From the NCBI GenBank assembly GCA_032161105.1, contig JAVHTD010000030.1: a stretch of 27,123 bases of DNA; one strand, 5' to 3'. Positions 12,249-24,680 of this stretch are shown here, one piece after another. A program made the position numbers and the translations under genes. Under the pieces are notes generated by a model. It saw nothing but the letters and a program-made list of their open reading frames with translations, searched no databases and had not been told where the DNA came from. The stretch comes from Candidatus Thermosaccharophagus tengchongensis. GTDB lineage: Bacteria > Armatimonadota > Fervidibacteria > Fervidibacterales > Thermosaccharophagaceae. Each line of letters begins with the position of its first letter. Position 1 is the stretch's first letter.

Positions 12249-12562
12249 CCCATGAGCGCCCGGCAAATCCAACCTGGATGTGCACGAGATGGTTGGAAGG
12301 TGTGGGTGGCTCGCCGAATTTGACAACCAGCACTTGATGACAGAGCGCACAACAGATTGCAACTGCATTGCAGTGGGAGTGAGAGCATTTGATCCAAACC
12401 GCTATAACAGCTTGGATGCCCGTTGCAATTGCATCAGCGCGCGGCTGAGGGGGAGGGGAGGCTTTACCTCACTGCTTCTTATCCCGCTGCGGTTGCGCCG
12501 TGAGGCTTGATGGGCGCTGTGCTTGTTTGTATAGCAAAGTTGGTGCGAAAGGGGCGAGTGCT

Positions 12563-14890
12563 ATGTGGGATGGTGAGCTGACCGAGGTTGTGAAGTTGAA
12601 GGCTTTTGAGCTCGGCGCTGATTTAGTCGGGATAGCATCAACTGAGCGATATGAACATGCTCCGGAAATGATGCGTCCTCAGGCGCTTTTGCCGACGGCG
12701 AAGGCGGTGATTGTCGTTGCAATTCATCACCCGGATGCGTGCGTTGAGCTTGGTGGTGAGCCGACACCACACGACATCGGACCTTACAACATCCAAGGCG
12801 TAATGAACAGCCGTCTTGATCACATCTCATTTGAGCTTGGTCGGTTCATTGAAGGTTTAGGACACGATGCGCTGCCATTAGCCTCAACGAACATATGGCG
12901 GTATCGCCGATACAAATCAAACGAGACCGAGTTTGCTCCCGACCTGTCAAACATACACGCTGCAGTTGCAGCCGGCTTGGGCGAGTTCGGTAAAAGCGGC
13001 TTGTTACTCACGCCAGAATTTGGACCGCGACAAAGGTTATGCTGTGTCATCACCAGTGCGCCGTTGAAGCCAGACGAACTTTACTCGGGTCAGAGGCTGT
13101 GCGATGACTGCAACCTTTGTGTCAGGGCATGTCCGATGGATGTTTTCACAAAGGAGTGTGGCGAGGCTGTCGTGCGCATTGGCGAAAGGGAGTTCAAATA
13201 CATCGCCAAGAACAAATGGCGTTGCGCGTGGTGTGAGCACTTCGGATTGAGCATTGACCTGCCGAAGCCGGAGAGGATTGATGAGGGCGTGATTCTGAGG
13301 ATGCTTGATGAGCATGGTGTTCGTGGTGGCGCAATGGGCTACTGCCTGCGTTTCTGCATGCCACCACACCTTCGCCACATGGATAAAGCCTTCACACGCG
13401 TTTGGCGCAGGAAGCGAATGGGCATCGGCGAGCGCCATAACGCATCGGTGAGGAATTTGAACCTGCTCATGGAGCTCAAGTCATTGTCATTCAAGTCTGG
13501 TGCGCAACTGCTTGCCGTAGCCGATGCTCAAGCGTGCGCGCAGAATGGCATCAACTTGAATGAACATCTTCCCGGGGCACAATCGCTCCTGCTGTTTTCA
13601 ATGCGCTACCCAAAAGCCTGCGTGACAGACGACGGCAAATTGGACGTGCCGGCTTCAATGGCGCTCTCAATTCGTTCAGGTTGGCTTGAACTTGACTTGG
13701 CGCGCTTGCTTGAGAGGCGCGGTTACTCGGCATTGCCATGTAGCGGGGTTGATGTTGAGCGGGCTGGAGATGCGGTTGGTTTGGTGGGACAAGTTGGTGA
13801 TATGGGTGGTGCAATGAGGCAAGCCAGTCGGTGCATACTGACGGATGCGCCATTGCCGAGTGGCTGTTGGATGAGCGCTGTTGACGGGCTTTGGAGGGTA
13901 AGCAGCGGTGATTTGACCGAGGCGCTCGTCGCTTTCGCTAAGGAGCGCGGTGCGGATTTAATTGGGATCGCCGACGCTAAGGATGTTAATGAGCTGGCGA
14001 GGCAACTGAGGCAAGTCATTGATGAGAGGATGCTCGGTGAATATGTGGTTGATGTTGGCAGGATGCACGGTGAGGTTGTCCCAAGGATTGTGCGCACAGA
14101 CGCGAAGGTGAAGGGTGCAAGTGATTGGCTCAATGACGCTTCATCCGTCATCGTGCTCGGCGTGCATTATCCGAGCGCCAATCTGCGCTATGCTGCAATG
14201 CCTCCGGCTGAGGCTGTTGGTCCGTATGGATTTGTGAGCTACCAATCCGTTTACGAGCTGCACTTGCTTGCGCTTGATGTTGCGCTTTGGCTTGAGGCGA
14301 ATGGCTTTGATGCGAAGATTGCCCCAGACATATTTGGCATTGGCATACCGACGGCGAGCCCAAGGGGTTTCCTGCCGGATGCGACATCAAATGCGCTTCT
14401 TGGGGCGCTCTCCGGGGTTGGGTGGCTCGGTTGGCATGGCGCTCTCATCACAAGGCGATATGGGGTGGCGCAGAGGTTGATCTGCGTGGTCACAAATGCG
14501 CCGCTCAAATCATCACCGCAGTTGAGCGAGCCATCGCCGTGTGATGATTGCACAAAGCCGTGCGTTGATGCCTGTCCAGCTGGTGCGCTCCTGAAGGAGG
14601 CAACAGAGATTGCGCTTCAAAGGACAGGCTCAGCGGCACAAGTTGTGTGGCATGTTGGGAAGCTCCTCAGGCGAAGATGCGAGTGCGCAAAGCGCTATGG
14701 GCTCGTCGGTGAGGAAGGACCATCATTCATGGGCGATATGACGGATGTTGAGTTGCCCGATGGTGAGCCAACGATTGAGGAGATTGCCGAGTTGGTGAAG
14801 CATCGCGACCCAATACAGAAGCATTGGATTTGCATCATTGAGCGCTGCCTTCAAGCATGCCAATTAAGCGGTGCGTGGAGTGAAAGTTAA
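12563..14890 (+). CDS. Multi-repeat QueG/reductive-dehalogenase-like Fe-S (possibly cobalamin) protein
   Basis: GADLVGIA, AAVAAGLGEFG...FGPRQR, CDDCNLCVRACP; C-terminal copy GADLIGIA, GVGWLGWHG...YGVAQR, CDDCTKPCVDACP; AAGGGG RBS before ATG 12563. Confidence 0.78.
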   Translation: MWDGELTEVVKLKAFELGADLVGIASTERYEHAPEMMRPQALLPTAKAVIVVAIHHPDACVELGGEPTPHDIGPYNIQGVMNSRLDHISFELGRFIEGLGHDALPLASTNIWRYRRYKSNETEFAPDLSNIHAAVAAGLGEFGKSGLLLTPEFGPRQRLCCVITSAPLKPDELYSGQRLCDDCNLCVRACPMDVFTKECGEAVVRIGEREFKYIAKNKWRCAWCEHFGLSIDLPKPERIDEGVILRMLDEHGVRGGAMGYCLRFCMPPHLRHMDKAFTRVWRRKRMGIGERHNASVRNLNLLMELKSLSFKSGAQLLAVADAQACAQNGINLNEHLPGAQSLLLFSMRYPKACVTDDGKLDVPASMALSIRSGWLELDLARLLERRGYSALPCSGVDVERAGDAVGLVGQVGDMGGAMRQASRCILTDAPLPSGCWMSAVDGLWRVSSGDLTEALVAFAKERGADLIGIADAKDVNELARQLRQVIDERMLGEYVVDVGRMHGEVVPRIVRTDAKVKGASDWLNDASSVIVLGVHYPSANLRYAAMPPAEAVGPYGFVSYQSVYELHLLALDVALWLEANGFDAKIAPDIFGIGIPTASPRGFLPDATSNALLGALSGVGWLGWHGALITRRYGVAQRLICVVTNAPLKSSPQLSEPSPCDDCTKPCVDACPAGALLKEATEIALQRTGSAAQVVWHVGKLLRRRCECAKRYGLVGEEGPSFMGDMTDVELPDGEPTIEEIAELVKHRDPIQKHWICIIERCLQACQLSGAWSES

Positions 14891-14899
14891 GGTTTGGTG

Positions 14900-15730
14900 A
14901 TGAGCATGAGCTTTGCTCAATCGCTGTTTGATATTTCTGGCAGGGTTGCGGTTGTGACTGGTGGTGCAGGTGTGCTATGTAGCGAGATGTGCATTGCGCT
15001 TGCAAGGTGCGGCGCATGTGTGGCAGTGATTGACATTTCGGATGATGCCGCCAATGAGCTTGTTAGGCGAATTCATGCCGATGGCATGAAGGCAATAGCC
15101 GTGCATGCGGATGTCACTTGTAAAGATGAGCTTGAACGAGCCCGTGAACGCATACTTGACGAGTTTGGGCGAGTTGACATCCTCGTCAACGGTGCAGGTG
15201 GGAATGTGCCGCAAGCCACAGCCACTGATGAGATATCGTTTTTTGACCTGCCAGAGGAGGCGCTTCGCGCCGTCGTTGACTTGAACTTTTTTGGCACGCT
15301 GCTTTCTTGCCAGGTCTTTGGGCGAACATTCGCAGAGCAAGGCGAGGGCGTTGTAGTCAACATCTCATCGGTGAACGCCATCAGACCGCTAACGAGGGTA
15401 TCGGCGTATGCGGCTGCGAAGGCTGCTGTTGTCAATTTCACAAAGTGGCTTGCAGTGCACATGGCTCAAAACTATTCGCCAAGAATTCGTGTGAACACGA
15501 TTGCGCCCGGCTTCTTTATCACGAGGCAAAATCGCTACTTGCTCATTGATGAATCCGGAAGGTTGACCGAGCGTGCAAAGACAATTCTCGCACACACACC
15601 GTTGGGGCGATTTGGTGAGCCGAGGGATTTGATTGGCGCTCTCATTTGGCTCTGCTCTGATGCGTCATCGTTTGTCACCGGCGCGGTCGTTGTGGTGGAC
15701 GGTGGATTTACCGCCTTTAGCGGTGTGTGA
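14900..15730 (+). CDS. SDR oxidoreductase, D-mannonate oxidoreductase (UxuB-type SDR)-like
   Basis: TGGAGVLC, NGAGGNVPQAT...SFFDL, YAAAK, IAPGFF..QNRYLL, VDGGFTAFSGV terminus typical of this SDR clade. Confidence 0.85.
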   Translation: MSMSFAQSLFDISGRVAVVTGGAGVLCSEMCIALARCGACVAVIDISDDAANELVRRIHADGMKAIAVHADVTCKDELERARERILDEFGRVDILVNGAGGNVPQATATDEISFFDLPEEALRAVVDLNFFGTLLSCQVFGRTFAEQGEGVVVNISSVNAIRPLTRVSAYAAAKAAVVNFTKWLAVHMAQNYSPRIRVNTIAPGFFITRQNRYLLIDESGRLTERAKTILAHTPLGRFGEPRDLIGALIWLCSDASSFVTGAVVVVDGGFTAFSGV

Positions 15731-15797
15731 AGCCGTTGGCAAGTATGTGGGCATTTCTGCGGTTGTGTGTGGCGTGTCAAAATTGGGGTGGCTTGAA

Positions 15798-16838
15798 ATG
15801 AGTTACGAAATCGGCATGAAAGCACTCAGGCTTGAATTTGCCGAGAGGGTTGCCCACACGGAGTATTGCTCCAACTATGCCCTCGTCCGCAAGGTGACCG
15901 GGCTTGACCCCACAAAGGATGAAAACGCGTGGCGGGCATTTTACGATGCATGGCAATATGACTTGATTTGGCTCACTAATGACGGTCCAGTTGGCTGGGA
16001 AAAGCGCGGCAGGGTCACCGACATGGGGCATGCGGAATTCCTTGAAGGTGGCATTGACAAGCGCGAGACTGTCCATTGTCCATTTAAGGATGTTGAGGAA
16101 GTGCTCTCTTTTGACGCCGTCAAAGAGTATGGATTGCCAGATTTTGACGGGCTTGTGAGGTATTACGAAAACTGGCATGCGCAAACTCAAGCGGCTTACC
16201 CAAATCAAGTTTGTCCCGGCGGGTATTACAAGACGATCGTTTCCGGAGCAATTCAAGCCTTCGGATGGGAAATGCTCCTGCTTGCAGCTGCTGACAGGGA
16301 GAGGTTTGACAGCGTCCTTGAAAGCTTCTTTCAACTTTCACTGCACCATTACCGTGCGTGGGCAAAGACATCCATAAAGGTCTTCATCTGTCACGATGAC
16401 ATGGTTTGGACGCAGGGTCCATTCATGCATCCCGATTTTTACCGCAGGTCAATCTTCCCAAGATACAGGAAGCTTTGGGAAGTTTTGCACGAATCCGGCA
16501 TAATTGTGCTATTTTGCTCCGATGGCGATTGGACGATGTTCGTTGATGACATTGCTGAAGCGGGTGCTGACGGCTTTATCTTTGAGCCGTTGATACCGCT
16601 TGAGTATGTTGTTGAGCGTTATGGGAAAACGCATATTATCGTCGGGAGTAAGGTTGACTGTCGCACATTGACATTTGGCACAGCCGAGGACATCAAGCGA
16701 GAAATTGACGAAACATTAAAGATTGCCAAAAATTGCCCCGGCTTCGTTTTCGCGGTCGGAAATCACATCCCAAGCAATGTCCCCGTTGAAAATGCCGAGT
16801 TTTATTTTGATTACCTCGCTCGCAATTGGTGGAGATAA
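15798..16838 (+). CDS. Uroporphyrinogen decarboxylase / MtaA-CmuA superfamily protein
   Basis: ICHDDMVW..GPFMHPDFYR..IFPRY, LFCSDG, GADGFIFEP, LTFGTAEDIKRE, GFVFAVGNHIPSNVPVEN; GGGGTG RBS before ATG 15798. Confidence 0.85.
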   Translation: MSYEIGMKALRLEFAERVAHTEYCSNYALVRKVTGLDPTKDENAWRAFYDAWQYDLIWLTNDGPVGWEKRGRVTDMGHAEFLEGGIDKRETVHCPFKDVEEVLSFDAVKEYGLPDFDGLVRYYENWHAQTQAAYPNQVCPGGYYKTIVSGAIQAFGWEMLLLAAADRERFDSVLESFFQLSLHHYRAWAKTSIKVFICHDDMVWTQGPFMHPDFYRRSIFPRYRKLWEVLHESGIIVLFCSDGDWTMFVDDIAEAGADGFIFEPLIPLEYVVERYGKTHIIVGSKVDCRTLTFGTAEDIKREIDETLKIAKNCPGFVFAVGNHIPSNVPVENAEFYFDYLARNWWR

Positions 16839-16985: not shown

Positions 16986-17861
16986 TTAAAGTCCAGCCTC
17001 TTCAATGACTGCTGGGACATACTTGTCCCAACCAAGCGGCATTATGTGAACTCCCTGGCACATATCCTTCATTTGCCTGATGAGCCTTCCGGCAATTTCA
17101 ACGCTCTTTTTCGGTCTATCTTCCCTTGAGACCGATGCGAGTTCGTTTATCAATTCATCCGGCACAGTGACCCCAGCGACATTCTCGTTCATGTAGCGAG
17201 CCATAGCTGGCGATTTCAGGAGCACTATCCCGAGCATTATTGGCACGCCAAACTTGCCCGCTTTCTCCATAAAGCGCTCAAAAACTTTTACATCATAGAC
17301 TGCCTGAGTCTGGAAAAATTGCGCGCCAGCTTCAATCTTTTTCTCCATCTTTATGAGCTGCAATTCAATGGGCTCGTATCCCGGGCTGACTACAGCTCCG
17401 AGGAAGAAATTCGGCTTTCCATCAAGTTCGTTACCCATCATATCACGCCCTTCTGTCAGCCCCTTTGCCACTTTAAGCAGTTGCACAGAATCCAAGTCAA
17501 ACACTGGCTTTGCTTGCGGGTGATCACCAAGCGTTACATGGTCGCCAGTCAGGCATAGCACATTTTCAATTCCGAGAACAGCTGCGCTCAATAAGTCGGA
17601 TTGTAGGGCGATTCTGTTCCTATCTCGGCATGTCACTTGGAGAATTGGCTCAAGACCGCGCTGCTTAAGCAGGTAGCATGTGACGAGGGAGCCAAGCCGC
17701 ATCACGGAACTTTGCTGGTCTGTGACATTGAATGCATCCACGCAGTCACGCAACTCTTCAGCCTCTTTCAAGACCGGCTCAATGTTTGTTCCCTTTGGCG
17801 GACCAACTTCGGAAGTGATGACGAACTCGCCCCTTGCGAATTTTTCCGAAATTTTGCTCAT
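16986..17861 (-). CDS. metF: Methylenetetrahydrofolate reductase MetF (MetFV type)
   Basis: EVGPPKG, NVTD, QVTCRDRNRIALQSDLL, LCLTGDH, VFDLDS, KKIEAGAQFFQTQAVYD, GVHIM. Confidence 0.96.
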   Translation of the reverse strand: MSKISEKFARGEFVITSEVGPPKGTNIEPVLKEAEELRDCVDAFNVTDQQSSVMRLGSLVTCYLLKQRGLEPILQVTCRDRNRIALQSDLLSAAVLGIENVLCLTGDHVTLGDHPQAKPVFDLDSVQLLKVAKGLTEGRDMMGNELDGKPNFFLGAVVSPGYEPIELQLIKMEKKIEAGAQFFQTQAVYDVKVFERFMEKAGKFGVPIMLGIVLLKSPAMARYMNENVAGVTVPDELINELASVSREDRPKKSVEIAGRLIRQMKDMCQGVHIMPLGWDKYVPAVIEEAGL

Positions 17862-17931
17862 ATTCTCCGCCCTCCCTTCACTGAGCAGTGCAGTTTGGTG
17901 AATATCTCACTCCGCTTCAGATTGCCATTGG

Positions 17932-18609
17932 CTATATGCCCTTTTTCTCAAGTGCCCAAAGGCGAGAATTGCGCAATTCGGCACTCGGCATATACTTTTG
18001 AAAGTCCTTTGGCGGGACATAGCGCTTCAATATATCAAGTCTGCCAATGCGCTTTAGACGCTCGTAGATGAGATACCACCCGCAGTCAAGCTGTGGGTCT
18101 ACCTCACATTTGCCGTTGTTAGTTCCACCGCATGCCCCGTTTAACAGCGACTTTGCGCACAATGTTACTGGACAAAGCCCGCCGGTCAGATAAAGCAAGC
18201 AATCGCCGCATTGATTGCACCTTTCAGTTGATTGCCAAACTCCCGGAGCACCCCTCATTGGCAGCGTGTTGAAGGCTGGATATGCTGGCTTATCTACGGT
18301 GTTGGCAATGGCTTGCACGCCCACGCCGCAGGATAGCACAAGTATGCAGGTGGCTTCATCAATTTCGCTTATGTGCCGTGCAAGGTGTAAGCCAGACAAT
18401 GCCTTGTTGCACAGGAATTCAATTGCCACAAGCCCTGTCACCCTTTTCCCGGCGTCTTCAATTCTTGCCTTCATTTCCAGCGCCTTTGGCTCTCCGCCAA
18501 CTTCAGCCCCAACTGGGCAACCGTTACATGCGACGATGAACACACCAGCCTCACCGTCAAGGAATGAAAGCACCTCTTCAATCGGCTTTGGCTCAACAAT
18601 TAGCATCAC
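17932..18609 (-). CDS. metV: MetV, Cys-rich Fe-S/flavin partner subunit of MetF
   Basis: CNGC, LCN, SCGVGVQ, CNQCGDCLL..TGGLCPVTLCAKSLLNGACGG...KCEV....DCGW; directly upstream of metF; start GTG 18609 or ATG 18606. Confidence 0.93.
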   Translation of the reverse strand: MMLIVEPKPIEEVLSFLDGEAGVFIVACNGCPVGAEVGGEPKALEMKARIEDAGKRVTGLVAIEFLCNKALSGLHLARHISEIDEATCILVLSCGVGVQAIANTVDKPAYPAFNTLPMRGAPGVWQSTERCNQCGDCLLYLTGGLCPVTLCAKSLLNGACGGTNNGKCEVDPQLDCGWYLIYERLKRIGRLDILKRYVPPKDFQKYMPSAELRNSRLWALEKKGI

Positions 18610-18692
18610 TTACACCCCCGCATGCAGTGCCATTTAGCTTTATCACCCACATTCGCAGTGTTTTGTAGGTTCCGACCATGGTCAGCATACTT

Positions 18693-18745
18693 GTAGGGGC
18701 GGGTGAAACCCGCCAGTTTTTCGGGCGCATTTCATGCGTCCCTAC
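18693..18745. repeat. GTAG-type REP doublet in inverted orientation (REPIN-like)
   Basis: Forward GTAG-GGGCGGG-TGAAA-CCCGCC (18693-18714); reverse-strand GTAG-GGACGCA-TGAAA-TGCGCCC (18745-18723). Confidence 0.75.
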
Positions 18746-18759
18746 TTTTTGCGCAACTC

Positions 18760-19248
18760 CTATACATCGGTGGATAACTTCAAACATGCCTCCTTGACTG
18801 CCGCAACATACTCGCCCATACGCTCGCTTAGAGCCGGCGAAATTTCGCACGATGGCTTGATTGACCCAGCTTGAATTCCGATTAGCAGCACCTTTTCTGG
18901 GCATTTTCCGAGCAATTGCGCTGCGTGCAATGTTTGCCAAATGTCAAACTCATGCAGTGACAATGGTGCTGCACGATTCATCATCGCTTCCTTGGCAGCC
19001 ATATGCGAGATGTTGAGCGACACTTCCACCATCTCTCCCGGCTGCAAATCGGCGTCAATTGCATCAACAATAATGAGCGCCTTGGCGTCCACAATCAACG
19101 GCAGTAGGGAAATTCCGAGTGTGCCTCCATCAATGACCTCCACTTCGTCCGGCAACTTTTCCCGAAAGAGCTCATTAACGACATGCACGCCAATTCCGTC
19201 ATCCCCCATGAGAACATTTCCGATGCCAAGCACCAATACCTTAGGCAA
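18760..19248 (-). CDS. Hydrogenase maturation endopeptidase (HyaD/HybD family)
   Basis: LGIGNVLMGDDGIG, IDGGT, IVDAID, SLHE; TTG start overlapping the large-subunit stop. Confidence 0.95.
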   Translation of the reverse strand: MPKVLVLGIGNVLMGDDGIGVHVVNELFREKLPDEVEVIDGGTLGISLLPLIVDAKALIIVDAIDADLQPGEMVEVSLNISHMAAKEAMMNRAAPLSLHEFDIWQTLHAAQLLGKCPEKVLLIGIQAGSIKPSCEISPALSERMGEYVAAVKEACLKLSTDV

Positions 19249-20770
19249 AAACCTTTACCTCCCCGATTGGCATGCCCTTCAAATTTGTCATGTGGACTGC
19301 ACATGCAAGGCAAGGGTCAAATGAGCGGACTATTCTGACAATTTCTTCCGGATTTTCCCAATCCCTCACCTTTGCCCCAATCAAAGCAGCTTCAATTGCG
19401 CCATGTTGTCCATTGTCATCCATCGGCGAGCCATTCCAAGTTGTCGGCGATATGATGCTGTAGTTAGCGATTACGCTGTTTTCAATTCGCACATGATGCA
19501 TGAGACAGCCCCTCGGAGCGTCAACAATTCCAATGCCCTCAGCATCGCTTGGGAGCTCATATGGCACAAAAGTTGGCTCATCTGGGCTCAGCTTTAGCAC
19601 CCACTCGCAAAGCGCCTCAGCTATCACCTTTGCCTCAATTGCTCTGGCTATATGGCGTCCCATGACAGAAAGCATCTCATCAATGCCGATTGAGAGTTCG
19701 CTCATGACGGCTTTCAGTTCTTTCCTGACACTTTCGTTGCCAGAGGCATAGTTCACAAGCAGGCGTGCAAGCGGACCGACTTCGTGAGTTAACCCCTTGT
19801 ATCGTGGCGCTTTGATGAATGAATATGCGCCCTCTTTCTGTGGGTTTGGCGTGCCATCGTCATCATACCATGAGTAGCGGATTGCCTCGCATATTTGGCT
19901 CAGGTCAAGTTCCTCATGTTTTAGCGACTTGTTGGTTGTGCCCTGCACAAGAAGCCTTTTACGCCTCGCGTAATCGGGCTTGCTGCCGTCCAAGTCAAAA
20001 AAGCCAAAAGTTATGAAATTACCGCAACCAGCCCCGATGCCAAAGTAATCGCTATAGGCTTTTGCCACCCTGAGCACATCGGGCAGGTATGCATTCACGA
20101 CAAAGTCGTAAAGTTCCCTTGCACGCCAATAAAAAGACACCATTTTCTCGGTTGTAGGGCGACTCGTGACACCGCCTGGGACTATGCCAGCTTGTATCGG
20201 TGTCCTCCCGCCAAAAAGGGCGAGCATATCGTGTGCTTTGCGGCGCATTTCAAGTGCCTGAATGTAGTGGAGCACTAAAGCCTTGTTGTCGTCGTCATTC
20301 AGCCTGTAATCACCCACATATCTCGGCAAAAATGGCGCCAATTCGCCACGGGATGCAAATTGCCTCAATGCCTCAAAATCATTCTCGGGATAACTCGCTG
20401 CCCTCACGACATCGGCATAGTCAAGGCTGCACAGGTGGTAAAAATGCAGGATGTGGTTGTGGACATATTCCGAGCCGAGGATCAGGTTTCGCAATATGAG
20501 CCCATTTTCCGGTATTTTGTCCGATATTCCGAATGCCGCATCCAAGCATAGCGCTGATGCAGTCCCGTGTGGCACCGGACAAACACCGCAAACCCTTTGT
20601 GTAATCCTTGCAGCGTCCCTTGGGTCTCTACCGCGCAAAATTAGCTCAATGCCGCGATAAAGCACCCCCGAACTTCTCGCATCAACGATAGTGCCACTGT
20701 TATCAAGCGTTGCCTCAATCTTCATATGCCCCTCAATCCTCGTCATCGGGTCAATGACTATCTTGGGCAT
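19241..20770 (-). CDS. [NiFe]-hydrogenase large subunit (group 1a-like)
   Basis: DPMTRIEGH, L1 motif QRVCGVCPVPH, HFYHL, APRG, PTTWN, L2 motif RSFDPCLACAVH plus cleavable C-terminal tail; GGGGG RBS fits ATG 20770 (alternative 20779). Confidence 0.96.
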   Translation of the reverse strand: MPKIVIDPMTRIEGHMKIEATLDNSGTIVDARSSGVLYRGIELILRGRDPRDAARITQRVCGVCPVPHGTASALCLDAAFGISDKIPENGLILRNLILGSEYVHNHILHFYHLCSLDYADVVRAASYPENDFEALRQFASRGELAPFLPRYVGDYRLNDDDNKALVLHYIQALEMRRKAHDMLALFGGRTPIQAGIVPGGVTSRPTTEKMVSFYWRARELYDFVVNAYLPDVLRVAKAYSDYFGIGAGCGNFITFGFFDLDGSKPDYARRKRLLVQGTTNKSLKHEELDLSQICEAIRYSWYDDDGTPNPQKEGAYSFIKAPRYKGLTHEVGPLARLLVNYASGNESVRKELKAVMSELSIGIDEMLSVMGRHIARAIEAKVIAEALCEWVLKLSPDEPTFVPYELPSDAEGIGIVDAPRGCLMHHVRIENSVIANYSIISPTTWNGSPMDDNGQHGAIEAALIGAKVRDWENPEEIVRIVRSFDPCLACAVHMTNLKGMPIGEVKVFA

Positions 20771-20824
20771 TTGCCTCATCCCCCTTCATTGGCAGCATCT
20801 TAATTTTTCCCATGCTACATGCCG

Positions 20825-21727
20825 TCAACTTAAGGTCAGTTTGCCGGTTGCCTCATCCAATTTGAGTTTCGGTAGACGCTCCTCAAAAAATCGCTCATAC
20901 AGTGGCGACATGACATCCGGAAAGCCCGGCTCACAGCACCCAATGCACGGGTGACCGTTGTCTATGCACCAGTTAATCCCGCCATTCCACTTTCGGTATG
21001 GGCAGTCAGAAAATGTGACATAGCCCTTACATCCGACCTCATATAGGCATCCTTCATCGCTGAGCTTGTGCGCCATCCGACCGGTGTCAAAATAGCCCCT
21101 TCTTGGGCAATTATCATGTATTAGCTTGCCATAAAAAAGCTTCAAACGCCCGAGCTCATCAAGTTCTTCAGCCTTTGGCAGCCCATAAAGCATGATGTGC
21201 GCGCATGTCCCAACAAACCAATCCGGGTGCGCCGGGCAGCCGGGAACACGAACAAAGGGCGTATCAATGCCATTTAAGCGCATAAATTCAACGATGCTCA
21301 TTGCGCCAGTTGGATTTGGTCTTCCTGATGGTATGCCGCCGAAGGATGCACAAGTGCCAAGCGCAACTACCGCCATAGCATTGCCTGCGAGTTCTTTCGC
21401 CAATTCCGTCAGTGGCGTCGGTTTCCCATCCCTTTCACCGATTGTGCAGAATAGCCCATTATTTGCCGTCGGTATCGCACCCTCCATAACGAGCAAATAG
21501 CCGTTTGGAAAACTCCCCTTCGTCTCCCTAATGATTTCCATGGCAATCTCGCCAGAACCAGCCATAATTGTCATGTGGAAGCGCAGATTGATGTGCTTTC
21601 CCGGAAGAAGTTCCTCAAGGAGCAAGTTGGCAATTGATGGTCGGACGGAGTTGAGCACGGATATGCTGCACCCCGTGCAAGTTGCCCCTTGCAGCCAAAT
21701 GACGGGGATTTCAACGACCTTTTCCAT
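20825..21727 (-). CDS. [NiFe]-hydrogenase small subunit without Tat signal or membrane anchor
   Basis: WLQGATCTGCS, GTCASFGG, PGCPAHP, HDNCPRR, CLYEVGC, DC...WCIDNGHPCIGC; GGAGG RBS; start 21727, 21733 or 21739. Confidence 0.95.
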   Translation of the reverse strand: MEKVVEIPVIWLQGATCTGCSISVLNSVRPSIANLLLEELLPGKHINLRFHMTIMAGSGEIAMEIIRETKGSFPNGYLLVMEGAIPTANNGLFCTIGERDGKPTPLTELAKELAGNAMAVVALGTCASFGGIPSGRPNPTGAMSIVEFMRLNGIDTPFVRVPGCPAHPDWFVGTCAHIMLYGLPKAEELDELGRLKLFYGKLIHDNCPRRGYFDTGRMAHKLSDEGCLYEVGCKGYVTFSDCPYRKWNGGINWCIDNGHPCIGCCEPGFPDVMSPLYERFFEERLPKLKLDEATGKLTLS

Positions 21728-21783
21728 AGTCAACGCCACCTCCGCTGGTTGGGTGGATACGGCATCTCAAGCTCAGGGTGCAC

Positions 21784-22497
21784 TTATTGCCCCCGATGCT
21801 TTCGCTCCCTCTCCAAGTCGTCAATGAATTGCGAGACCTTGCTTTGCCATCTTTCAAATTCGCCCTCAACATCCAACGGCAAAGCGCGCCTGTAAAAGAT
21901 GGCGATGTGCAACTCCGTGATGATCTCACGAAACCTTTGTTCAATTTGCGGCGGCAGTCTGCCAAGCAATTGCCCCCACCTTGTTTCCTCCGTCGCCAAG
22001 TATGCCATAACCGCCAAGCGTGCCGCATCAAAAAGGGTGTTGAATGCGTTGCGATAATGCGTCTCGCGCTCTACCAAGTCAGTTGCTCTAATGGCATTGC
22101 CAAGGTAAGCGCGGGCGACTTCTGAGACTCTTTTTGCCTCATCAAATGTTGGCGGCGGCATGTCCTTTATTGCCTCCCAAACCAAATCGGCATCGCCAAA
22201 GAGCACCCTGCCAAAGGACTTGACTGCCACACCAATGTAACCAACTGGCTCACCAACTTGAACTGGAACAATGTCCACACTCAACGGGCAATTGGCTGCC
22301 GCATCGCAGTAGACTTTCATGTCTTTCTTTCGCCTCGTCAGGATGAGGAGGTCAATGTCGTTTGCAAGGTCTGGTGCGTAAACTGAGGAGCCAAACTGAA
22401 CGATTGCGACGATGTCGGGGTCAGCTTTAAGCAAAGCCTCGGTCAAGAATGATAGCCATTCTGAGTTGGCAGACAACCCTTCGCCCTTTATCGGCAT
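21784..22497 (-). CDS. Fused minimal nucleotidyltransferase (MNT) + HEPN-like domain protein
   Basis: Pol-beta motif QFGSSVY...DIDLL and third Asp in VDIV; C-terminal helical domain RNAFNTLFDAARLAVMAYL...FREIITELH; start uncertain (ORF open from 22551). Confidence 0.75.
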   Translation of the reverse strand: MPIKGEGLSANSEWLSFLTEALLKADPDIVAIVQFGSSVYAPDLANDIDLLILTRRKKDMKVYCDAAANCPLSVDIVPVQVGEPVGYIGVAVKSFGRVLFGDADLVWEAIKDMPPPTFDEAKRVSEVARAYLGNAIRATDLVERETHYRNAFNTLFDAARLAVMAYLATEETRWGQLLGRLPPQIEQRFREIITELHIAIFYRRALPLDVEGEFERWQSKVSQFIDDLERERKHRGQ

Positions 22498-22771
22498 CAC
22501 AGTGGCTTCACCGCTTTTGCCTGCACGGCGTCGCTCAACACCCAGCCTCATTCACAGGCCATAGGCTGATAACGCTGGCGCATCAACACAGCCGTGCAAG
22601 CTAATTTTCGCCCATGCCTGATAAGATACGGCTACAGTTTCGCACGCAGGGCGATAGCAATCATCCAAATTCATATGATGTAGGCATTGCGCGAAAAAGT
22701 ATGCTCCATCTTCCACTGCCGATTTTATCGGCATTGCGGCTCGCTGTGGAATCTCGCACCTATCGCTACCC

Positions 22772-24481
22772 TCAGAATATACCTACCACCTTCCCCTCCT
22801 CATCAATGTCCACATCCATGAACGCCGGTCGTGATGGCAATCCGGGCATAGTTTGCATTTCACCCGCAATCGGGTAAAGGAAGCCAGCACCAACTGATGC
22901 CCTTATATCACGAATCGGGAAGATATAGCCGCTGGGGACATTCTTCCAATTCGGGTCATGCGAGATTGAAAGGTGTGTCTTTGCCATGTTGATTGGGAAA
23001 CGGTCCCAACCAAACTTAGTATATAGCTCAATCTTGCGCATTGCCAGTGACGAGAACTCAACATCCTCGGCGTTGTAAATTTCGCGAGCCAAGATGCGTA
23101 TCTTTTCCTCAATTGACAGATCGTCCGGGTATAGCAGGCGCATTTGTGCCGGCTTCTCATCAAGCACCCTGACGACCTCCTTTGCCAGGTCAATTGCGCC
23201 CTCACCACCCTTTGCCCAACACTCGGAAACTGCAAAGCCATCTGCACCAGCCTCAAGCGCCTTTCTGCGCACGACTTCAATTTCGCTCTCATGGTCGCTT
23301 GTGAACCTGTTGAGCGCAACAACTGCAGGTATGCCGAGCTTCTTTGCTATGCCAATGTGCCATGCCAGATTCTCGCAACCCCTTTCAACCGCCTCCGGAT
23401 TTTCTCGCTCAGCAAGCTCTTTGATTGATTCGTATGATTGCCCCGGACGAAACTCAAATGCGCCACCGTGCAGCTTGAGTGCCCTTATTGATGCGACGAT
23501 GACAGCGAGGTCAACCTTCAATCCGCTTAAACGGCACTTGACATCAACGAGCTTCTCAAAGCCGCAGTCAGCGCCGAATCCGCTCTCTGTAACAACATAG
23601 TCGGCAAGCTTGAGTGCAACCATGTCGGCAAGGACTGAATTATTTCCATGGGCAACATTCGCGAATGGGAAGCCGTGAATGATTACCGGATGATGCTCAA
23701 GTGACTGGCAAAGGTTTGGCTTGATTGAGTCCTTCATCAAAGCCGTCATTGCGCCGGCTACTTTCAAGTCCTCTGCGGTTACTGGCTTGCCGTCGTATGT
23801 GAAGCCGATGACTATCCTGCCAAGACGCTGTCGCAAGTCTTTGAGGCTTGTTGTGAGTGAGTGTATTGCTGCAGTCTCAGTTGCAACCGTTATGTCGTAG
23901 CCTGTCTGCCTTGGATAGCCATTCGCTCTACCACCCAAGCCAATTACAACTTGCCTTAACGCTCTATCGTTCAAGTCAACGCACCTTGTCCATGTGACCT
24001 CAAGCGGGTCAATGCCGAGCTTGTTGCCATGAAGTATGTGCGCATCAATCGCTGCAGCAAGCAAGTTGTGAGCTGCTTCAACCGCTGGTATGTCACCAGT
24101 GAACATCAGGTTGATTTCAACCATTGGGAGAACTTGTGCATAGCCGCTGCCAGTTGCGCCACCCTTAATTCCGAATGTCGGTCCCTTTGATGGCTCTCGC
24201 ATCGTGTTGCACACCTTTTTGCCAAGGCGATGAAGCGCCATGCCCAAACCAAGAGCTGTGACGGTTTTACCTTCACCGAGCGGTGTTGGAGTTATCGCCG
24301 TTACGGAGATCAACTTCCCATTCGGTCTGTCGGCGAGCCGCTCAAGCACCGACAAGTTAATCTTTGCAATATACTTGCCGTGAAGCTCTATCTCGTCCTC
24401 TTCCAGACCGAGTTGGTGAGCTATCTCAACAATCGGCTTCATCTCGGCGCGGTAGGCGATCTCAATGTCACTGAGCATCAT
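22772..24481 (-). CDS. fhs: Formate--tetrahydrofolate ligase
   Basis: SDIEIA, TAITPTPLGEGKT, REPSKGPTFGIKGGA, FANVAHG, TESGFGADCGFEK, MAKTHLS, MPGLP; GGAGGTGA RBS before ATG 24481/24478. Confidence 0.97.
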   Translation of the reverse strand: MMLSDIEIAYRAEMKPIVEIAHQLGLEEDEIELHGKYIAKINLSVLERLADRPNGKLISVTAITPTPLGEGKTVTALGLGMALHRLGKKVCNTMREPSKGPTFGIKGGATGSGYAQVLPMVEINLMFTGDIPAVEAAHNLLAAAIDAHILHGNKLGIDPLEVTWTRCVDLNDRALRQVVIGLGGRANGYPRQTGYDITVATETAAIHSLTTSLKDLRQRLGRIVIGFTYDGKPVTAEDLKVAGAMTALMKDSIKPNLCQSLEHHPVIIHGFPFANVAHGNNSVLADMVALKLADYVVTESGFGADCGFEKLVDVKCRLSGLKVDLAVIVASIRALKLHGGAFEFRPGQSYESIKELAERENPEAVERGCENLAWHIGIAKKLGIPAVVALNRFTSDHESEIEVVRRKALEAGADGFAVSECWAKGGEGAIDLAKEVVRVLDEKPAQMRLLYPDDLSIEEKIRILAREIYNAEDVEFSSLAMRKIELYTKFGWDRFPINMAKTHLSISHDPNWKNVPSGYIFPIRDIRASVGAGFLYPIAGEMQTMPGLPSRPAFMDVDIDEEGKVVGIF

Positions 24482-24680
24482 CCAACCTTCACCTCCACGA
24501 GCTGGTTTGGTGGTTTGAAGCATCGTCATGTTGTGGAGCAATCTGCTGCCAAATGCATCACGATGTAGCAACGCTTTTGCCAGCTTCAAACACTTGCAGC
24601 GCTTGCACATTCGGCATCTCTTGTGGGGATGGGCGGGAGTCCACACAAGATTGATCTGCTGACCGAAAAACGCGGAGGCT

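Follow-up and report, generated by a model that had tools for sequence, protein, structure and literature searches.

The 27,123-nucleotide stretch of DNA analysed here (hereafter the window) belongs to contig JAVHTD010000030.1 of assembly GCA_032161105.1, Candidatus Thermosaccharophagus tengchongensis (Armatimonadota). Side by side on one strand, it encodes the small and large subunits of a [NiFe] hydrogenase, HydS and HydL, and the Fe-S and flavoprotein subunits, MetV and MetF, of a methylene-tetrahydrofolate (methylene-THF) reductase (MTHFR). We consider it likely that HydS-HydL and MetV-MetF constitute a single enzyme, a soluble cytoplasmic H2:methylene-THF oxidoreductase. An earlier reading of the letters alone, referred to below as the original prediction, had proposed a cytoplasmic hydrogenase as the electron module of MetFV. 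This proposal is supported by a synteny that is conserved and permuted among relatives, by a correlated loss of hydrogenase export, by co-occurrence with acetyl-CoA synthase (ACS), and by a predicted interface between HydS and MetV.

Seven genes, all on the minus strand, occupy positions 16986-24646 of the window. The co-directional run from fhs to metF that had been noticed at the outset is confirmed by the coordinates and the family matches of all seven genes:

16986..17861, minus strand: metF, catalytic flavoprotein subunit of methylene-THF reductase (PF02219, 133.3 bits)
17932..18609, minus strand: metV, Fe-S subunit of MetFV-type methylene-THF reductase (PF12225 at residues 110-204, 114.6 bits)
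18690..18755, no strand assigned: pair of GC-rich hairpins, resembling repetitive extragenic palindromes (REP-like), within the hupD-metV spacer
18760..19248, minus strand: hupD/hybD-type hydrogenase maturation endopeptidase (PF01750, 84.9 bits; TIGR00072, 126.8 bits)
19241..20779, minus strand: hydL, [NiFe]-hydrogenase large subunit (PF00374, 454.5 bits; NF033181, 615.6 bits with a cut-off of 600)
20825..21727, minus strand: hydS, [NiFe]-hydrogenase small subunit (PF01058 and PF14720)
21784..22551, minus strand: open reading frame ORF255, 255 amino acids, no Pfam or NCBIfam match at E <= 0.001
22772..24481/24484, minus strand: fhs, formate--tetrahydrofolate ligase (PF01268, 802.7 bits; NF010030, 751 bits)

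The intergenic distances are 220 (fhs-ORF255), 56 (ORF255-hydS), 45 (hydS-hydL), -8 (hydL-hupD), 150 (hupD-metV), and 70 nucleotides (metV-metF), the negative value denoting an overlap of the protease gene with the hydL stop by 8 nucleotides. Since the Pfam match of Fhs begins only at residue 59 of the longest open reading frame, its start is probably the ATG pair 24484/24481. The GC skew flips near 16.9 kb and 24.7 kb, which is consistent with one co-directional block.

The reductase is of MetFV type: a PF12225 metV lies directly upstream of a PF02219 metF, and the cysteine pattern is conserved. MetV is composed of an N-terminal alpha/beta domain and the C-terminal PF12225 domain. Its cysteines 28, 31, 94, 131, 134, 137, 146, 151, 160, 168, and 176 are invariant, and C67 occurs in at least 90% of the alignment rows; 11 of these 12 cysteines are kept in all 14 MetV proteins without hydrogenase linkage that were compared, and position 67 is a cysteine in 10 of the 14. 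Flavin mononucleotide (FMN) and [4Fe-4S] clusters are known from the purified Clostridium ljungdahlii MetFV (PMC8515935), and are visible here as ligand residues only. The 2S-type (type II) MetFV enzymes of C. ljungdahlii, T. kivui, E. callanderi, and C. aceticum (PMC8515935; PMC8760232) have the same MetF (PF02219), a metV (PF12225) just upstream, conserved cysteine ligands, and no NAD(P)H-binding subunit. These enzymes are heterodimers that take reduced ferredoxin in vitro, whereas the block in the window additionally contains the genes of a complete [NiFe] hydrogenase, for which docking on MetV is predicted.

The accessory modules of the other MetFV types are located elsewhere. RnfC2 of the 3S type, in which a MetV-like N-domain is fused to an RnfC/NuoF-like domain, is not encoded in the window; two Complex1_51K proteins sit on another contig of the genome (C8) beside NuoE and FdhA. 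Likewise, hdrABC and mvhD of the 6S type do not accompany metFV, as HdrA, HdrB, and HdrC are encoded on contig C5 and an MvhD fusion on contig C36. The initial statement that cytochrome b, HdrABC, MvhD, RnfC2, and diaphorase genes are missing therefore holds within the window, among whose proteins a family search revealed no cytochrome b, Hdr, MvhD, RnfC, or NuoF-like gene, but it does not extend to the genome.

As judged by sequence, HydSL is a catalytic group 1 (1a-like) type enzyme that fails the hallmark of this group, export. The best PDB matches of both subunits are periplasmic group 1 [NiFeSe]/[NiFe] hydrogenases (E 1.3e-78 for HydS, 5e-128 for HydL), and group 2 (Huc-type) and group 3 chains rank far lower (E 1e-46 and worse). 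The PF00374 match of HydL is full length, and its two Ni-Fe motifs, RVCGVCPVPH and DPCLACAVH, both align to the D. vulgaris enzyme. The latter contains cysteine and not selenocysteine, and is followed by a 13-residue C-terminal extension. This extension and the HupD-type protease point to a matured, catalytic enzyme. In HydS, C17, C20, C126, C164, H204, C207, C227, C233, C242, C261, and C264 are invariant in 23 orthologues, and C254 is kept in at least 90%. HydS thereby retains the ligands of the proximal, medial, and distal Fe-S clusters, and we take their assignment to the individual clusters to follow the Desulfovibrio structures.

The periplasmic group 1 hydrogenases of Desulfovibrio and Desulfomicrobium (D. 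vulgaris Hildenborough; PDB 3ze6, 2wpn, 5jsu) have in common with HydSL the heterodimer architecture, the Ni-binding motifs, the three Fe-S clusters with all ligands (four cysteines at the medial cluster), the large-subunit extension, and the HybD-type protease. HydSL differs from them by a small subunit without a twin-arginine translocation (Tat) leader, and thus cytoplasmic, by cysteine in place of selenocysteine, and by a clade-specific tail of about 20 residues. Furthermore, no cytochrome partner is encoded with it, and its genes are grouped with metVF instead.

Several observations agree on the missing export signal. Profile matches of HydS begin only at position 38-43 of Tat-bearing small-subunit models. 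The hydS ATG at 21727 is preceded by GGAGGTG, and the earliest in-frame start after the upstream stop lies just four codons further up (GTG 21739). Residue 8 of HydS corresponds in the alignment to residue 9 of the mature form of the D. vulgaris [NiFeSe] small subunit and to residue 43 of its precursor (2wpn_A), and the alignment to 3ze6_A/2wpn_A spans from the mature N-terminus to residue 278. The remaining C-terminal tail, which reaches about 20 residues past the end of the [NiFeSe] small subunit, shows no hydrophobic anchor in the translation, and carries a pattern conserved within the clade, K-I/L-D-E-x-x-L-x-x-F-K-I/L. The small subunit was therefore rightly described as free of both Tat leader and anchor. 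Of the features expected of group 1 enzymes, the Tat signal is absent and no membrane anchor or cytochrome (b or c3) acceptor is encoded.

This loss is a property of the whole clade linked to metVF. Among the genome loci, none of the 22 complete small subunits that belong to the linked clade carries a Tat motif, and 15-50 residues lie between their upstream stop and the CxxC. In contrast, all 12 resolved unlinked relatives have RRxFLK-type Tat leaders, a count from which two archaeal loci that the pattern script could not assign are left out. C-terminal anchors occur in some of the Tat-bearing relatives, e.g., L020, L022, L023, L029, and L031. Two of 38 metagenome small subunits fit a loose RR pattern, both without a hydrophobic region and without a start codon upstream of the RR, such that a credible Tat leader was found in none of the 38. 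A Tat leader or a membrane partner, which the original prediction had named as evidence against itself, was thus not found for this hydrogenase, and leader loss tracks MetVF linkage. In a quick HydL tree, three label changes are needed, and three Tat-bearing Geopsychrobacteraceae sequences are nested in the group beside L021 (SH-aLRT 85), a placement whose support was regarded as weak. A single Tat-less clade is not rejected by the approximately unbiased (AU) test (p-AU 0.093).

A cytoplasmic hydrogenase next to metVF might also be a regulatory H2 sensor of the HupUV kind that controls metVF expression, as known H2 sensors are cytoplasmic and have no Tat leader. Group 2b sensor hydrogenases, however, are not known to have a large-subunit extension or a dedicated protease, and come with a linked signalling kinase. 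HydL has the extension, the protease gene overlaps hydL, the closest relatives are catalytic group 1 enzymes, and we identified no histidine kinase or response regulator in the block and no kinase in the window. We regard a sensor function as extremely improbable.

The arrangement of hydrogenase and reductase genes is conserved on several taxonomic levels. The order fhs-hydS-hydL-hupD-metV-metF is kept in all three other genomes of the genus (G001-G003). On a broader scale, one genome per species was scanned with HydL, resulting in 37 HydL-related loci, which were sorted by tblastn with the window proteins. MetV adjoins the hydrogenase in 20 of the 37 loci and MetF also in 19; in the remaining one, L018, the place of MetF is masked by N. 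Thirteen loci are without MetV or MetF, and in four the sequence stops too early for a decision, inside the hydrogenase genes or shortly behind them (L004, L008, L029, L033). The 20 linked loci are labelled Spirochaetota (most), Dehalococcoidia/Dehalococcoidaceae (L014, L019), Anaerolineales (L024, L026), and 'uncultured bacterium'. Other neighbours in the Spirochaetota loci are rho, rpmE, a sigma factor, and small membrane or TPR-like proteins, and no further redox partner is among them. The fhs gene heads the block in the window, in the same genus, in some Anaerolineales, and in some metagenome loci, and lies directly upstream of hydS in L015, L024, and L026.

When metagenomes were scanned with the MetV alignment, 594 relatives were confirmed, and the best 79 loci were examined. 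In 63 of these 79 (63 of 71 informative ones), hydS, hydL, or hupD lies within 6 kb of metV. Two of the 63 are loose, with about 3.8 kb between the genes in L099 and a HupD-like match only in L146. Eight of the 79 are uninformative, with less than 1 kb upstream, and eight are unlinked, with MetV identities (42-45%) at the bottom of the linked range (42-77%). With S, L, D, V, and F denoting hydS, hydL, the protease gene, metV, and metF, the orders found are S-L-D-V-F (20 loci), S-L-V-F-D with the protease gene behind metF (five loci), S-L-V-F (three loci), fhs-D-S-L-(D)-V-F (three loci), S-L-V-V-F (one locus), and fhs-F-S-L-D-V (one locus, L090); the other loci are truncated forms of these. In genome locus L014, the order is metV-metF-hydS-hydL. 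That the four genes stay together while their order changes speaks for selection on adjacency itself. The original prediction had made itself dependent on an adjacency conserved in relatives, and this adjacency held at all three levels.

The genomic content fits a role in the Wood-Ljungdahl pathway. The genome (G000; 97.4% complete, 0.64% contamination) encodes a full bacterial ACS/carbon monoxide dehydrogenase (CODH) cluster of AcsD, CODH, AcsB, AcsC, AcsE, CooC, and RACo, as well as FolD, HypD, and a formate dehydrogenase (FDH), FdhA, with NuoE and two NuoF-like subunits on contig C8. The metF of the window is the sole PF02219 (MTHFR-family) match of this genome, which also has a single MetV-like match. 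ACS was found in 19 of 20 genomes that bear the module, in comparison to none of four genomes with the nearest Tat-bearing relatives; these counts include kin that are not independent and genomes whose completeness is not known.

A physical contact between the two enzymes is predicted by complex modelling. The pair HydS + MetV reached a score of 0.76 (runs 0.82, 0.76, and 0.69), and the best of three controls scored 0.00. A score of 0.76 is reached by 116 of 157 solved complexes and by two of 215 mismatched pairs, counts that are rough for our case since the alignments were custom-made. At least 90% of the contacts are shared between the runs, and the pLDDT (predicted local distance difference test) of the partner is at least 83. 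On HydS, the interface comprises residues 191, 202, 205, 213-216, 236-237, 266-267, 272, and 280-299; it flanks the distal-cluster ligands H204/C207 and C227/C233 and takes in the clade-specific tail. This is presumably the face on which the redox partners of group 1 enzymes dock, and not the HydL-binding face. On MetV, residues 64, 68-84, 104-107, 123-128, and 187-188 are involved, mostly in the N-terminal alpha/beta domain and next to C67. Recall of a solved complex by the predictor is unlikely, because no credible MetV relative exists in the PDB by sequence (profile search, best E 0.45). Thus, the model supports binding of HydS to MetV. Of the four-subunit complex whose modelling had been suggested, it covers the HydS-MetV pair, which passed the controls.

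The MetV model itself (AF2, pLDDT 78.5) has no Foldseek match in the PDB at E <= 0.001, and a wide VIA-align search gave generic alpha/beta matches (periplasmic-binding-protein-like, Rossmann-like) at Z 8-10, near the background of the tool. An MvhD-like nature of the MetV N-domain, by which HydS-MetV would copy MvhG-MvhD, was considered but gained no support: hhalign against MvhD of the same phylum gave a probability of 0.39% (E 0.15).

Synteny and interface bear on a second explanation, namely that two separate enzymes are co-located and co-regulated. The hydrogenase would reduce a diffusible carrier (ferredoxin, flavodoxin, or thioredoxin), and this carrier or Hdr/MvhD/Flx would reduce an ordinary 2S-type MetFV. 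The purified 2S-type enzyme of C. ljungdahlii indeed takes reduced ferredoxin, flavodoxin, and thioredoxin (PMC8515935), the genome encodes HdrABC, the MvhD fusion, and NuoEF modules, and Wood-Ljungdahl genes often cluster, with fhs standing in the same block here. However, the genes remain neighbours in at least six permuted orders and across several phylum labels, and the position of the protease gene behind metF in five metagenome loci places metVF inside the hydrogenase operon. The predicted HydS-MetV interface passes its controls and uses the clade-specific tail. Moreover, in the absence of bifurcation, for which the block encodes no module, H2 (-414 mV) would reduce ferredoxin (-450 mV) poorly (potentials from PMC8760232). 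Two separate enzymes are therefore an unlikely explanation in our view.

In the preferred reading, a single H2:methylene-THF oxidoreductase, H2 would be split at the Ni-Fe site of HydL, which HupD matures, and the electrons would pass through the three Fe-S clusters of HydS to the surface-exposed distal cluster. MetV, docked at this cluster and at the clade-specific tail, would take the electrons over and hand them to the flavin of MetF, where methylene-THF is reduced to methyl-THF. The product would proceed to the acetyl-CoA synthase encoded elsewhere in the genome. The hydrogenase would thereby stand in the place of ferredoxin (2S), RnfC2 (3S), or HdrABC-MvhD (6S) of the characterised MetFV enzymes. 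H2 uptake would be the expected direction, given standard potentials of about -414 mV for H+/H2 and about -200 mV for methylene-/methyl-THF, as quoted in PMC8760232. The step should still be exergonic at the low H2 pressures of sediments, and electron bifurcation would not be involved.

Synteny and interface are silent on direction, and the same complex might run in reverse. Methyl-THF would then be oxidised and the electrons would leave as H2, as part of a reversed Wood-Ljungdahl pathway that oxidises methyl groups or acetate, either where H2 is very low and the temperature high, or in both directions depending on H2 pressure. The nearest solved relatives are of the [NiFeSe] type, a class credited with enhanced H2 production activity (PMC13582414), and the bacterium is a hot-spring organism, as 19 of the 20 sequencing runs holding all or part of the stretch are labelled hot-springs metagenome. 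URO-D-family genes, possibly encoding methyltransferases, are found convergent to metF and beside the FDH genes. The co-occurrence of the module with complete ACS clusters is compatible with either direction. Oxidation of methyl-THF to H2 would, however, be strongly endergonic unless H2 is extremely low (potentials from PMC8760232), and the block encodes no second, high-potential acceptor to drive the reaction. On balance, H2 production as the main direction seems improbable to us.

The remaining hydrogenases of the genome raise the question of ferredoxin supply. No [FeFe] hydrogenase is encoded in the genome, and the one further clear hydrogenase is a membrane-bound group 4 enzyme with a molybdopterin (formate-dehydrogenase-like) subunit, a HycI protease, and antiporter modules. 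The genome thus leaves room for a further source of H2-derived reduced ferredoxin, and the four subunits might form a bifurcating complex, in which H2 reduces both methylene-THF (exergonic) and ferredoxin (endergonic) and so supplies CODH without a separate bifurcating hydrogenase. MvhAGD-HdrABC, referred to in PMC7325909, shows that flavins fed by Fe-S clusters are able to bifurcate. On the other hand, no bifurcating flavoprotein of the HdrA, NuoF, or EtfAB type is encoded in the block, no bifurcation with ferredoxin was seen for the MetFV of C. ljungdahlii (PMC8515935), and two-electron hydride transfer at the MetF flavin would fit poorly with one-electron splitting. Bifurcation by this complex is very unlikely.

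The group 4 enzyme may be connected to the proposed oxidoreductase in another way, as the partner in an intracellular hydrogen cycle, for which we see a small but real chance. The ion-translocating group 4 hydrogenase would oxidise formate or reduced ferredoxin, pump ions, and release H2, and Hyd-MetVF would capture this H2 at low partial pressure and reduce methylene-THF. Jointly, both enzymes would act as an 'Ech-MetVF' ferredoxin:methylene-THF oxidoreductase with H2 as a diffusible wire instead of a super-complex. Oppinger et al. postulated a chemiosmotically coupled 'Ech-MetVF' as a way out of the ATP deficit that MetVF-type acetogens face (PMC8760232).

Several points weigh against a single H2:methylene-THF oxidoreductase. 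The complex and its H2-dependent activity are predictions, and HydS was modelled without HydL. Direct transfer from H2 to methylene-THF would dissipate about 40 kJ/mol unconserved, a bioenergetic cost. At least 13 of the 20 linked genome loci come from one Spirochaetota clade, and Tat loss and MetVF linkage probably go back to one or a few origins rather than to many independent events. In 17 of the 20 other genomes bearing the module, there are two to five MTHFR-family matches, and the hydrogenase-linked enzyme is therefore often not the sole route. HdrABC (C5), the MvhD fusion with Flx-like partners (C36), and NuoEF-type modules (C8) are encoded elsewhere in the genome, and these or ferredoxin could feed MetFV as in the characterised enzymes. 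Finally, the 150-nucleotide gap between hupD and metV contains hairpins, which bears on co-transcription. In one metatranscriptome, available as contigs only, short contigs of 90-99% likeness lie on the metV 5' end, hupD, the hydS 5' end, ORF255, and fhs, where DNA carry-over is possible; none of them bridges a gene junction in this one RNA run.

Among MetV proteins about 40% identical in other genomes of the phylum, the neighbourhood is different. HdrB, a 1461-residue HdrA-like protein, and MvhD stand directly beside metV in two genomes (G042, G055), a GltD-like/FlpD (MvhD) fusion does so in a third (G053), and FolD (G052) and a CoA-disulfide-reductase-like protein (G035) are neighbours in two more. 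In 20 sister-family genomes searched, one weak MetV match was found. Because metV of the same phylum adjoins either HdrB-HdrA-MvhD or the GltD-like/MvhD fusion, the electron-input module beside metV looks exchangeable.

The physiological electron donor of MetVF is disputed; reduced ferredoxin works in vitro but leads to a negative ATP balance on H2 + CO2 (PMC8760232). Published MTHFR classes comprise the E. coli type, 2S, 3S (RnfC2), 6S (HdrABC-MvhD), and an unstudied NuoEFG-linked 'X', none with a hydrogenase in the parts of PMC8515935 available. Similarly, for pathway-bearing Chloroflexi, Actinobacteria, and Acetothermia, the accessible text of PMC5736913, PMC7325909, and PMC9586279 describes hdr-mvhD-metVF clusters only. 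In the 6S-type MetFV-HdrABC-MvhD of Moorella thermoacetica and Sporomusa ovata (PMC9430772), MetFV is fed by an accessory Fe-S/flavin module, with H2 likewise the ultimate reductant in S. ovata, and HdrB-HdrA-MvhD-MetV arrangements of this kind occur in the phylum of the window. Membranes of S. ovata reduce methylene-THF in dependence on H2 by a periplasmic cytochrome-b hydrogenase, quinone, and MetFV-HdrABC-MvhD, a route proposed to be energy-conserving (PMC9430772). In the window, by contrast, the hydrogenase is cytoplasmic and soluble, and the block contains no Hdr, MvhD, quinone, or cytochrome component.

A methyl-branch enzyme driven directly by H2 would have a counterpart in the hydrogen-dependent CO2 reductase (HDCR). 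In HDCR, the partner of an [FeFe] hydrogenase is formate dehydrogenase, which catalyses the first step of the pathway. The HDCR of Acetobacterium woodii and T. kivui follows the same principle: small Fe-S subunits hard-wire a hydrogenase to a reductase of the Wood-Ljungdahl pathway, and no soluble carrier stands between H2 and the reduction (PMC7005907). In the window, the proposed partner of a [NiFe] hydrogenase is MetFV, which carries out the last reduction of the methyl branch, and the two systems have no homology beyond generic Fe-S proteins. In the literature searched, which excludes most subscription journals and supplements, we found no description of a [NiFe]-hydrogenase/MetVF operon or enzyme.

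Our findings suggest that H2 directly drives the folate-reductase step by a route without biochemical description so far. If this holds true, the enzyme represents a further MTHFR class by electron input, a branch of the group 1 hydrogenases, otherwise exported, that stays in the cytoplasm, and the equivalent of HDCR in the methyl branch. Uncultured anaerobes frequently carry the module (Spirochaetota, Dehalococcoidia, and Anaerolineales labels, a hot-spring lineage, and 63 of the best 79 metagenome loci), which therefore bears on the H2 feeding of acetogenesis and carbon fixation in sediments, the subsurface, and hot springs. With a four-gene expression construct, the question of the MetVF donor becomes testable.

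Two further elements lie within the block. ORF255, originally labelled 'MNT-HEPN', gave a lone sub-threshold match to a Polbeta nucleotidyltransferase domain at its N-terminus (E 0.0032; 18 bits, cut-off 26.9), on which the MNT part of the label rests, and the HEPN part finds no support, as no such domain was detected in this protein. ORF255 is found in the present genome and in G003, and is missing in G001 and G002, where hydS comes directly after fhs. Among the other three genus members it thus occurs once, which marks it as an insertion specific to this lineage, placed between fhs and hydS and outside the conserved module; it looks like a recently inserted MNT-like (toxin-antitoxin-type) gene within a metabolic block.

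The second element is the hairpin pair of the hupD-metV spacer. It is a dispersed repeat with 20 blastn-short rows, one being the element itself, on 11 contigs of the genome, and the depth of metagenome contigs is about 100-fold higher at the repeat, with many loose ends. The hupD-metV spacer is longer here (150 nucleotides) than in G001-G003 (about 30-40 nucleotides), a difference that the REP-like repeat accounts for. A canonical minus-strand terminator or a riboswitch was considered for the hairpins and rejected, as the accompanying T-run lies on the plus strand only and the element is a dispersed REP-like repeat. A promoter and terminator scan performed no better than shuffled sequences (9 vs. 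7.2 and 7 vs. 9.6, respectively), and no Rfam family reached its gathering score in the window.

Downstream of the block, three plus-strand genes (12500-16838) are convergent to metF. They encode a 796-residue protein with weak Fer4 and QueG_DUF1730 matches, a short-chain dehydrogenase, and a 401-residue URO-D-family protein (15633-16838, plus strand), and the same three genes are kept beside the module in G003. A second URO-D-family gene adjoins the FDH/NuoEF genes on contig C8. These URO-D-family genes near metF and FDH may encode methyltransferase-type enzymes tied to C1 metabolism.

Variants of MetV and its partners were observed in other loci. Some metagenome loci (L087:6001-7334, L145, L081, L124) contain two metV copies, either as tandem S-L-V-V-F or with a second metV/metF pair nearby, which hints at duplication and divergence of the docking subunit. 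The giant HdrA-like proteins of about 1460 residues, with several FAD/NAD domains and Fer4, that are encoded between HdrB and MvhD-MetV (L067:9953-14338 in G042, L068:3415-7803 in G055) represent a fusion form of the Hdr-type input module of MetV.

In the genome of the window, the group 4 large-subunit gene (G000:C1:107318-108319; L038:9318-10422) has two in-frame TGA codons in the N-terminal Ni-binding region; a UxxU-type group 4b [NiFeSe] hydrogenase of Armatimonadota whose description fits this gene is reported in PMC13582414. On contig C36 (L041:7086-10475), three genes in succession encode a 464-residue protein whose N-terminal domain is MvhD (FlpD), a Fer4_22 protein, and a NAD-binding/DHODB-FeS protein. 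This set is a Flx-like trio without adjacent Hdr, and a similar pair of Fer4_22 and NAD-binding proteins precedes the group 4 hydrogenase genes on contig C1.

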